Shown piece after piece: positions 15,427 to 16,338 of a stretch of 64,000 nt of DNA. Location: contig CBDBHH010000005.1 in assembly GCA_965205535.1 (NCBI GenBank), forward strand, positions 2,140,672 through 2,204,671, given 5' to 3'. The notes beneath the pieces were generated by a model. That model had not been told where the DNA came from, did not search any database, and saw only the letters and a list, made by a program, of their open reading frames with translations. Source of the stretch: Alphaproteobacteria bacterium (GTDB lineage: Bacteria; Pseudomonadota; Alphaproteobacteria; UBA6615). Numbering within the stretch: position 1 is the stretch's first letter; every line of letters begins with the position of its first letter. A program made the translations under genes and the position numbers.

Positions 15427-16338
15427 ATGTTCAATTTGTTGATAAGCGGTAACGAGGACGCATTCGATGGTAAACCCTGGACCCTAGAGCGGCCGCGTGT
15501 TTTTGAGCACACAAGCGATGCAATCAAACAACGCTATCAAGACTTAGATAATCAACAGTTATCTGAGCTCTACAATTTCCCGACGCTATTCGCATTCGAG
15601 AGCGGTATCGGAAAGAACGCTAGATTAGGAAGGATTGAGCGCGCCCTAATGAGGCAGGGCGAAGTCCGGATCGAGTATTCTTTTGTCGATGGTTTACCAG
15701 AGATTACCTCCGAACAGTTCCAGGCACTGAGATGGGAACTAGAAGTTTCAGACGGGGAATATAACCGTACTCATTGGGCTGTTAAGGACGTGGATTTGGC
15801 AGCAGAGCTGATCTCTGCCGGTTTGATTAATCAGGATCAGTTAGACGATTTAGCTGAAGATTGGCGTTTGTTGTTCAGTGCTGAACCAGCCGCGCCGCCC
15901 ATGCATATTCAGCCAACTGTCTTCAAAATGCCGACGGGAACCGTTGAGCCCGATTTGGTCTCGATGATGCTACCTCTCAGTGCGGACTTTGGCCCAGTGT
16001 TCGATACCGTCAGTCGTGCCGGATTAGATTTGGGACTAAGGGTGTTGAATGCGAACCAAGTTTGGGAAGAAACGGAAATCATCCAGGATATATTTTCTTT
16101 GATATTTCGTTCCAAGTTTGTCGTCTGTGACTTTAGCGGAAGGAACCCAAATGTTTTTTATGAGGCCGGAATTGCTCACACGCTCGGACGTACAGTAATC
16201 CCGATTGTTCAGAACATCGACGATATCCCATTTGACCTTCGACATCATCGACACGTTGTTTACTTGAACAATGAGGAGGGCAGGCGGGCTCTTCTTGAGG
16301 CTCTAGTGCCGAGAATGACGGCGTTGGCTGAAAAGTGA
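15427..16338 (+). CDS. Uncharacterised two-domain protein: unknown N-terminal domain plus C-terminal TIR-like / nucleoside 2-deoxyribosyltransferase-like Rossmannoid domain
   Basis: 303 aa, starting 11 nt after the mod stop. C-terminal pattern LVSMMLPLSADFGPVFD...KFVVCDFSGRNPNVFYEAGIAHTLGRTVIPIV...IPFDL...VVY, with candidate catalytic Glu246 (GAG 16162-16164). N-terminal domain ends ...NRTHWAVKDVDL. Confidence 0.6.
   Translation: MFNLLISGNEDAFDGKPWTLERPRVFEHTSDAIKQRYQDLDNQQLSELYNFPTLFAFESGIGKNARLGRIERALMRQGEVRIEYSFVDGLPEITSEQFQALRWELEVSDGEYNRTHWAVKDVDLAAELISAGLINQDQLDDLAEDWRLLFSAEPAAPPMHIQPTVFKMPTGTVEPDLVSMMLPLSADFGPVFDTVSRAGLDLGLRVLNANQVWEETEIIQDIFSLIFRSKFVVCDFSGRNPNVFYEAGIAHTLGRTVIPIVQNIDDIPFDLRHHRHVVYLNNEEGRRALLEALVPRMTALAEK

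Follow-up and report, generated by a model that had tools for sequence, protein, structure and literature searches.

Described sensor–effector systems and the X303 locus

Proteins in which an N-terminal module fronts a toxic effector were described by Anantharaman et al. (2013; PMC3710099), whose AbiJ-NTD1–5 modules are fused to effectors such as the TIR domain and the nucleoside 2-deoxyribosyltransferase (NDT) domain. Here we analyse X303, a 303-amino-acid (aa) protein encoded in a stretch of 64,000 nucleotides (nt) from a bacterium of the alphaproteobacterial lineage UBA6615 (contig CBDBHH010000005.1, positions 2,140,672 to 2,204,671; the whole stretch is termed the window, and all coordinates refer to it unless another locus is named). 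X303 is probably a self-contained immune protein of the abortive-infection type, in which a sensor and an NAD+-hydrolase (NADase)-like enzyme are joined in a single polypeptide, and it is embedded as cargo in a restriction cassette. The design of a single-protein sensor–effector in a restriction locus was predicted in 2013, and X303 adds another member.

Like X303, the AbiJ-NTD proteins carry at their N-terminus an alpha+beta module (about 140-150 aa), joined to swappable effectors (HEPN domains of the AbiJ/Abi_C type, DUF4145, TIR, kinase and nucleoside-deoxyribosyltransferase domains). They often lie in or near restriction-modification (R-M) operons, as X303 does, and the module has been proposed to act as a sensor that gates the toxic effector (PMC3710099). 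The general description of an AbiJ-NTD, i.e., a domain of about 100-165 aa found before many effectors including an AbiJ-type HEPN domain, applies equally to the N-terminal domain of X303 (N-domain). This domain differs from those AbiJ-NTDs for which Pfam models exist (AbiJ_NTD3, AbiJ_NTD4 and AbiJ_NTD5), as none of the three models matched X303 or any of 28 homologs. AbiJ of Lactococcus lactis has a C-terminal HEPN (Abi_C) RNase domain; X303 lacks an Abi_C match, carries a TIR/NDT-like C-terminal domain (C-domain) instead, and hence is not AbiJ. A 2026 survey of Abi_C proteins (PMC13590631) listed 2,257 of 2,815 under 'no NTD', which is consistent with domains such as the X303 N-domain having been missed because they have no public models.

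Two characterised families placed between TIR and NDT enzymes offer a precedent for the C-domain. The DUF4062 protein 'Swarozyc' (bioRxiv 10.64898/2026.05.01.722283) belongs to a divergent TIR-like family with a single conserved catalytic Glu, to which X303 is similar; joined to an auxiliary domain, it works via NAD+ depletion as an abortive-infection system encoded by one gene. A fusion is likewise seen in X303, and a corresponding activity may be supposed. DUF4062 has two further links to X303, since it occupies the same operon slot in a related metagenomic cassette (L091) and partners the N-domain in another protein (P0180). The DUF4062 Pfam model does not match the X303 C-domain. The second precedent comes from retron Ec86/Eco1, whose effector has an NDT-like fold, depletes NAD+ and stays inactive until infection (Carabias et al. 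2024, cited in PMC13276650). X303 resembles it in these respects as far as its proposed function goes. The retron effector is controlled by a cage of reverse transcriptase and multicopy single-stranded DNA (PMC13276650), whereas X303 would be controlled by its fused domain, and neither a reverse transcriptase gene nor a noncoding RNA lies beside X303. The retron effector was not among the top 50 structural matches of X303 in Foldseek.

The best sequence-level match of the C-domain and its relatives is the PADLOC model 'Effector, TIR' of CBASS (PDLC00733). The neighbours of X303 are a res gene, a PIN gene, a mod gene and a UvrD helicase gene, and scans with Pfam, PADLOC and NCBIfam models detected no CD-NTase or cyclase of CBASS or Pycsar type. 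As the island contains no cyclase and the N-terminal part of PDLC00733 is unmatched, X303 is not a CBASS effector. With respect to Thoeris (ThsB), the X303 island contains no ThsA-type SIR2/SLOG or Macro effector.

Some bacterial TIR domains generate signals. On the basis of its similarity to TIR folds in Foldseek, X303 might thus be a ThsB-like enzyme producing a cyclic-ADPR-type messenger for a separate effector, but neighbour clustering of 80 genome loci led us to reject a conserved partner gene across the family, and in the window the same three scans detected no neighbouring gene for ThsA, SLOG, Macro or SIR2. This reading is therefore very improbable. The same low probability is given to X303 being a housekeeping salvage enzyme, against which argue its island context, the distribution of the family on plasmids and prophages, and an N-domain that swaps effectors.

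Gene and domain architecture of X303

X303 is encoded on the + strand at 15427..16338, with an ATG start and a stop codon at 16336-16338; the translation is identical to that quoted in an earlier, sequence-only reading of this DNA. Database searches yielded 4,067 homologous proteins at E<=1e-3, and nearly all of the best 120 are full-length (about 300 aa, 44-65% identity to X303), which establishes X303 as a real, conserved gene. Relatives are encoded on at least 578 stretches of species-representative genomes.

A structural model of the whole protein was computed with AlphaFold2 from an alignment of 29 sequences. It has a mean predicted local distance difference test score (pLDDT) of 89.5 and comprises two confidently modelled domains (aa 1-150 and aa ~171-303), between which lies a connecting segment (aa 151-170) with a pLDDT of only 53-57. 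In gene coordinates, the N-domain, a putative, promiscuous sensor of AbiJ-NTD-like character as judged from AlphaFold2 and profile searches, corresponds to 15427..15876 (+ strand); the Pro/Ala-rich linker (aa 151-175), delimited by low pLDDT and by conservation, to 15877..15951 (+); and the C-domain (aa 176-303), a putative N-glycosidase (NADase) effector according to Foldseek and PADLOC, to 15952..16335 (+). The two-domain layout with a Pro/Ala-rich linker that had been read from the translation was thereby borne out, with boundaries that were essentially right.

Within the 'disordered' linker, the sequence PTVFKMP (aa 163-169, 15913-15933) represents a conserved PxVF[RK]xP segment, in which F166 and P169 are invariant and P163 is nearly invariant in the alignment of X303 homologs. 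The segment also precedes a C-domain of the X303 type fused to AbiJ_NTD5 (second open reading frame [ORF2] of a Sphingorhabdus gene pair, L172 9890-10621). Since it is retained there behind a different N-terminal module, it belongs to the effector module; it may serve as a regulatory or docking strand.

The C-domain is a divergent member of the TIR/NDT assemblage

To assign a fold, the whole X303 model was compared with the Protein Data Bank (PDB) using Foldseek. The top matches consisted only of TIR domains and NDT/DNPH1 enzymes (E 8e-5 to 5e-3, probability 1.0). Among the former were Caenorhabditis elegans TIR-1, SARM1, SPARTA TIR-APAZ, MAL, AbTir and Hydra TRR-2 (target template modelling score [TM] 0.72), while the latter comprised 8pqq, 2a0k, 6qai and 8rpt (DNPH1), with E 2e-4 to 5e-3 and target TM 0.54-0.65. 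At the sequence level, PDLC00733 matched X303 over aa 192-276 (E 1.8e-10) and also matched four distant C-domain relatives (E 1e-9 to 5e-12); in the C-domain and these relatives the matched region spans model positions ~260-372 of 388.

Conventional family models were less responsive. Pfam and NCBIfam scans of X303 and of each of its halves gave no significant match, a lone MerG match (E 0.05) being noise, and none of the Pfam models TIR, TIR_2, CAP12-PCTIR_TIR, ThsB_TIR and DUF4062 matched X303 at E<=10. A search of PDB chains with whole X303 also gave no significant match. The NDT family PF05014 appeared below threshold in five of 29 members of the X303 family (best E 0.037) and in four more distant relatives (17-18 bits, E 0.003-0.007, model positions 33-102); the Pfam gathering threshold of this model is 28.8 bits, which none of these relatives reaches. 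Local profile-profile alignment (hhalign) of the C-domain with a TIR_2-type TIR domain gave P 0.035, which as a single comparison is not significant. The non-significant alignments paired NVxFExG of the CAP12-type/TIR_2-type TIR with NVFYEAG of X303, a correspondence that serves for illustration only. Given the TIR and NDT folds found by Foldseek, the PDLC00733 match, the sub-threshold PF05014 signal and the lack of a Pfam match, the C-domain is a divergent branch of the TIR/NDT assemblage without a Pfam model of its own.

Glu246 (codon 16162..16164, + strand) lies within the sequence NPNVFYEAG. All 29 aligned homologs have it, as do 205 of 205 distinct sequences from a broader set of relatives covering this column, which includes prophage and plasmid relatives; D235, V243, Y245 and G248 are invariant across the same 205 sequences. 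In the AlphaFold2 model, Glu246 is located in a helix (aa 241-252) that follows the third beta-strand (aa 231-235). The catalytic Glu of TIR NADases and of NDT/DNPH1 enzymes resides on the helix following the third beta-strand. By this topology, Glu246 is a candidate equivalent of the catalytic Glu of TIR/NDT enzymes. The sequence-only reading had proposed a TIR/deoxyribosyltransferase-like C-terminal domain with its Glu in NVFYEAG, and the results agree: the structural search led to the TIR/NDT fold and to no unrelated one (Foldseek probability 1.0), PDLC00733 concurred, and the Glu proved to be conserved among homologs.

The C-domain might act on (deoxy)nucleotides rather than on NAD+, as a nucleotide/nucleoside N-glycosidase or transferase comparable to NDT, DNPH1 or MilB, within the same architecture. 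NDT and DNPH1 structures do rank among the best Foldseek matches, but TIR structures match equally well or better by target TM (0.64-0.72 versus 0.55-0.57). PF05014 is the only recurrent Pfam match of the C-domain clan; all of its scores, however, remain at 17-18 bits against a cut-off of 28.8 bits, and the strongest sequence-level match is the TIR effector model. A fusion of AbiJ-NTD1 to a 'flavodoxin fold nucleoside deoxyribosyltransferase' is recorded in PMC3710099, whereas both the NDT-like effector of retron Ec86/Eco1 (PMC13276650) and the DUF4062 intermediate hydrolyse NAD+. We judge a nucleotide or nucleoside substrate to be unlikely and, in view of the recurrent weak PF05014 signal, nevertheless treat it as a serious alternative. 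NAD+ is our best guess by analogy, because sequence comparison links the C-domain most strongly to a TIR effector model and because both characterised in-between relatives hydrolyse NAD+.

Both domains of X303 are exchanged between proteins

The distribution of the N-domain was explored by searching its profile against 1.84 billion representative proteins, which yielded 1,619 representative clusters at E<=1e-3. The best 150 clusters were classified by partner: 24 proteins carry a C-domain of the X303 type, 40 are short or fragmentary, and 86 have other partners. According to Pfam, the partners among these 86 proteins are (i) CAP12/Pycsar-type TIR (25 proteins); (ii) TIR_2 (24); (iii) Abi_C, i.e., the AbiJ-type HEPN domain (9); (iv) TIR (8); (v) protein kinase (Pkinase; 7); (vi) SEFIR (4); and (vii) DUF4062 (P0180), PNP_UDP_1, FGE-sulfatase, EAD2 and EAD11. 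DUF4145 gave a weak match.

Several of these combinations are found on mobile DNA. A 298-aa protein consisting of an X303-type N-domain and a TIR/SEFIR domain is encoded on 74 Escherichia coli plasmids, and the PADLOC bSEFIR model matches its effector part (7e-62). One example is TC1_RS00135 on the IncF plasmid pTC1 (L170 4016-4912), which matches the X303 N-domain profile at E 4e-41. The bSEFIR system reportedly goes back to Millman et al. 2022. The pTC1 protein has the N-domain in common with X303 as well as a length of about 300 aa, and its gene likewise stands alone on mobile DNA; the protein differs in its effector, which is SEFIR/TIR_2 by Pfam and PADLOC bSEFIR (PDLC03957) as opposed to the NPNVFYEAG type of X303, and the bSEFIR model omits the N-domain. 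On the conjugative plasmids, the gene adjoins the parM partition genes. In the P2-like phage Peduovirus P22H1, gp44 (L171 320-1684; 454 aa), encoded at the genome end, combines the N-domain with FRG (PADLOC candidate PDC-S15). The E. coli plasmid and P2-like phage proteins represent tractable entry points for work in E. coli.

Exchange also occurs on the other side of the linker. A Sphingorhabdus plasmid (NZ_CP022549.1, L172 6062-10621) carries dcm, vsr and a Type II restriction endonuclease gene, followed by two adjacent paralogous sensor–effector genes. The first encodes an X303-type N-domain and an X303-type C-domain, the second Pfam AbiJ_NTD5 (E 1e-27) joined to an X303-type C-domain (E 2e-65). 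This pair constitutes a natural 'sensor swap' suited to comparative experiments. The operon slot of X303 is taken in L090 and L123, both of them metagenomic loci, by a protein of 321 aa in which an unrelated N-terminal region precedes an X303-type C-domain. Finally, prophages of Firmicutes encode X303-type C-domains at the N-terminus of otherwise different proteins (E 1e-17 to 1e-22). Examples are gp47 of Staphylococcus aureus phage P630 (L173 1444-2094) and Javan37_0053 of Streptococcus agalactiae (L175 1426-2121), whose genes are opposed to their neighbours in 'moron'-like fashion, and gp65 of Enterococcus faecalis phage phiEf11 (L174 1312-2232), located at the genome end. The remainder of these phage proteins is coiled-coil-like or without assignment, and they are annotated as hypothetical. 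They are likely to be prophage-encoded defence or exclusion genes.

The earlier proposal that the N-domain is a sensing or regulatory module, which might be fused to other effectors elsewhere, is in keeping with these data: the N-domain is swappable and is fused to TIR_2, CAP12/Pycsar-type TIR, SEFIR, DUF4062, Abi_C HEPN, kinase and FRG domains, and the C-domain is likewise found behind AbiJ_NTD5 and behind another N-terminal region.

The N-domain has a confidently predicted fold

When modelled alone with AlphaFold2, the N-domain reached a pLDDT of 97.3 and a predicted template modelling score (pTM) of 0.92. Fold searches with this model gave no significant match in the PDB (best E 0.24) or in BFVD (best E 0.058). 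A PUA-like barrel, hinted at by matches to the Lon N-domain and the ASCH fold that were not significant, was not adopted. Neither Pfam nor a profile search of PDB sequences matched the domain. Residues R24, E58 (E58/59), R114, H116, W117 and K120 are invariant or nearly so in the X303 family, with the RTHWAVK motif (aa 114-120, 15766..15786, + strand) at the centre of the invariant polar residues in the alignments. The same positions are also invariant across the 86 proteins with other partner domains.

The sequence-only reading had left the N-domain unassignable to any family. This needs revision insofar as UniProt names a homolog with 65% identity (P0003) 'AbiJ N-terminal domain-containing protein', although a Pfam match is still lacking. 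Identity with Pfam AbiJ_NTD3 was rejected, as protein P0155 carries both as separate, adjacent tandem domains (AbiJ_NTD3 at aa 111-249, E 5e-52; X303-type N-domain at aa 275-411). Identity with the N-terminal domain of L. lactis AbiJ is unsupported, for the PADLOC AbiJ model (PDLC02347) matches relatives that combine the N-domain with Abi_C only across their HEPN portion. By its spectrum of partners, the N-domain fits best with AbiJ-NTD1 of PMC3710099, of which it may be a candidate member.

Tentatively, and at a low probability, the N-domain may be a sensor, of a fold without a solved relative, whose invariant polar cluster binds one conserved infection-derived ligand; instead of a variable phage protein, this ligand would be derived from a nucleotide or be some feature of a nucleic acid.

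X303 is cargo of a res–mod–helicase cassette

Payne et al. (bioRxiv 10.1101/2024.01.29.577857) described 'guilt-by-embedding' for defence genes nested in Hma, BREX, DISARM and Type I R-M systems. X303 likewise occupies a nested, variable position that is enriched in defence genes. The cassette comprises, all on the + strand, the res subunit gene (8980..12093; 1,037 aa; NCBIfam NF046055, BPTD_3080 family restriction endonuclease, 1277 bits; Pfam ResIII and RE_endonuc), the gene for a Type III-class mod subunit (12437..15415; 992 aa; PADLOC MTase_III PDLC03632, 1183 bits over the full length; Pfam N6_N4_Mtase), X303, and a UvrD-family helicase gene (16344..18449; 701 aa; Pfam UvrD-helicase and UvrD_C). 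A literature search on BPTD_3080 and the res–mod–UvrD cassette found no publication.

The closest X303 homologs share the gene order res–(optional insert)–mod–X303–helicase, which occurs in at least seven independent genomes or contigs (L001/L082/L083, L002, L004, L014, L081, L084/L085 and the window). Family members with 50% identity or less are stand-alone genes in variable or mobile contexts. To view the cassette from its other end, 80 metagenomic loci (L090-L169) centred on helicase relatives of 50-82% identity were inspected. The genes res, mod and helicase are conserved in these loci wherever the flank suffices, and the X303 N-domain was found in none of the 80. The gap between mod and helicase was measured in 73 loci in which both genes were mapped, X303-bearing genome loci included; it ranges from 2 to ~3,600 nt and is 24 nt or less in about 16 of the 73. 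The remaining gaps hold 44 different gene clusters, whose products include GmrSD, an RVT_1 reverse transcriptase, DUF4062 (L091), Macro, an AAA_15/AAA_21 ATPase, radical SAM, DUF488, ASCH, Mrr-like and NOV_C proteins. A second slot exists at the res–mod junction, where related loci harbour at least 18 gene clusters (elsewhere GmrSD_N, REase-ARP, RhuM, PDDEXK_3 and ORF6N) and the window has a PIN gene.

The recurrence of the order res–(insert)–mod–X303–helicase in at least seven independent genomes or contigs might be taken to mean that the restriction system consists of four genes and requires X303 as its fourth subunit, e.g., as a regulator or a DNA-recognition adaptor. We regard this as highly unlikely, since the helicase-centred scan excludes X303 as a core subunit: the N-domain is missing from all 80 loci, mod and helicase directly abut in about 16 of the 73 mapped loci, and 44 unrelated gene clusters take the same position. 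In addition, an invariant Glu of catalytic type and the swapping of effectors fit a toxin-like effector and not an adaptor. Because the slot is variable or empty in related cassettes and the N-domain is absent from the helicase-centred loci, the comparison of gene orders points to X303 being cargo embedded in a three-gene res–mod–helicase system.

Another role for the surrounding genes is conceivable on the precedent of PrrC. In the EcoprrI system, PrrC is a latent toxic effector whose gene, like X303, is nested in a restriction locus at a position that varies among related systems (bioRxiv 10.1101/2024.01.29.577857; PMC3710099); the differences are that its host is a Type I system, as compared with the Type III-like res–mod plus UvrD host of X303, and that it is an anticodon nuclease instead of an enzyme of TIR/NDT-like chemistry. 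By analogy, X303 might be a guard which is held inactive by the res–mod–helicase complex and fires as a backup suicide device when a phage anti-restriction protein disables that complex. X303 is tightly nested, as junctions read directly show gaps of 11 nt to mod and 5 nt to the helicase gene, and no + strand promoter or terminator signal was found between the three genes. In a neighbour-joining tree, all seven cassette-embedded copies group within a single sub-clade of 8 leaves, and the identities of X303 and helicase fall in step from cassette to cassette (65/76, 61/79, 54/59, 49/54, 48/53 and 44/51%). Together, sub-clade and parallel identities suggest that X303 was captured once or a few times and was co-inherited thereafter. 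The Sphingorhabdus pair directly downstream of a Type II R-M system fits the same idea; most members of the X303 family, however, are not beside R-M genes, and the same N-domain occurs with many effectors on plasmids and phages without an R-M neighbour. Even in cassettes whose helicase is 73-82% identical, the slot is empty or filled with unrelated genes. A guard of this kind is thus improbable for X303; for the embedded sub-clade, dependence on the cassette is conceivable, but the data do not require it.

Proposed mode of action

According to the reading we prefer, that of a self-contained sensor–effector, the N-domain would recognise a cue of infection and keep the enzyme domain silent beforehand. 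Activation would probably occur by oligomerisation, as in other TIR-like enzymes. The active C-domain, with Glu246 as its putative catalytic residue, would most likely cleave the N-glycosidic bond of NAD+, a prediction derived from the fold and its precedents, and the ensuing NAD+ depletion would stop phage growth. X303 is probably co-transcribed with the mod and UvrD-helicase genes and is cargo of the cassette rather than one of its core subunits.

The following points weigh against this proposal: (i) defence, toxicity and NADase activity are all properties that we infer for the X303 family; (ii) X303 has no Pfam TIR or NDT match even at E<=10, and the C-domain profile gave no significant match to PDB sequences; (iii) the profile-profile comparison of the C-domain with the CAP12-type TIR was not significant (local hhalign, P ~0.08); (iv) the prediction gives little confidence in how the two domains are oriented towards each other (whole-protein pTM 0.53), and the model therefore provides no structural evidence for autoinhibition; (v) at a mean column identity of 53%, the N-domain shows a conservation that would be unusual in a sensor of phage proteins, which evolve fast, and its invariant set of R, E, R-T-H-W and K residues could equally mark an enzyme; (vi) the gaps of 11 and 5 nt amount to tight operon coupling, with which a functional link to the restriction system would be compatible.

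Island, neighbouring genes and GC content

The island (~7.8-18.9 kb) lies between a Usp gene (7359-7769) and, at its other end, a tRNA-Thr gene (18949-19024, - strand) together with a panE-like gene; no integrase gene was found within it. It starts with two + strand ORFs of 125 and 170 aa (7796-8173 and 8319-8831) that have no Pfam, NCBIfam or PADLOC match. Ahead of related cassettes lies a small HTH_17 gene or BrxR.

The res–mod slot is filled by a PIN/VapC-like gene (12090-12464, + strand; 124 aa; Pfam PIN, E 3e-8). The overlap of its ORF amounts to 4 nt at the res stop and to 28 nt at the called start of mod, and it has no obvious antitoxin-like partner. The closest cassettes lack the gene: there is no insert in L081 and L084, and an unrelated gene of 397 aa in L082.

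Ahead of its UvrD core, the helicase is extended at the N-terminus by ~240 aa (aa 1-239, 16344-17060). This extension weakly matches PF05015, a RelE/HigB-like toxin fold (E 2.5e-4, below the cut-off), and ParE_like (0.096). The best PADLOC model for the helicase is the candidate 'NERD+UvrD' (C3a187), followed by GajB. The Hma model was not among the best 25 of 61 PADLOC matches of mod, nor among the best 25 of 50 of the helicase.

The island has a GC content of 52.4%, compared with 59-62% in the flanks and 65% in the panE-like gene. X303 itself has 48.0% GC (50.7% at third codon positions, GC3), with 37-58% in its 60-nt lines. It had been described as the most AT-rich gene of the island, which holds by a hair, since the PIN gene has 48.3%. 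Of the further figures given at the time, about 53% for res and helicase was close (53.9% and 54.7%), whereas the range of 37-50% for 60-nt lines was too narrow and the value of about 70% for the chromosomal flank too high (59-65%). As the PIN gene and 300-nt windows of mod (as low as 46.7-48.3%) are equally low, the dip in X303 does not exceed the internal variation of the island. Base composition is therefore too weak a ground for the separate acquisition of X303 that had been deduced from it; the idea as such is supported by the variable mod–helicase slot of related cassettes.

Implications

The findings on X303 overturn no current ideas and fill a predicted corner of the field. Curated models are missing for both of its domains. 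The C-domain, a TIR/NDT-like domain of the NPNVFYE[AL]G type without a Pfam model, is common in alphaproteobacterial islands, on plasmids and in Firmicutes prophages, and thousands of 'hypothetical proteins' would gain an annotation if it were assigned biochemically, be it as NADase or as nucleotide glycosidase. The two-slot res–mod–UvrD cassette extends 'guilt-by-embedding' to a Type III-like host and offers a list of candidate defence genes.

The N-domain is among the more confident predicted folds without a solved relative, and it is wired to TIR, SEFIR, HEPN, kinase, DUF4062 and FRG effectors. If its invariant polar cluster does bind a conserved ligand, more than 1,600 N-domain clusters, with eight or more classes of effector, would belong to one large sensor family of innate immunity that shares a trigger, and for the embedded copies this trigger could be made by the surrounding res–mod–helicase machine or could reveal its failure. 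The ligand of the N-domain is the main question of value, as knowing it would account for the triggering of many single-gene defence systems.

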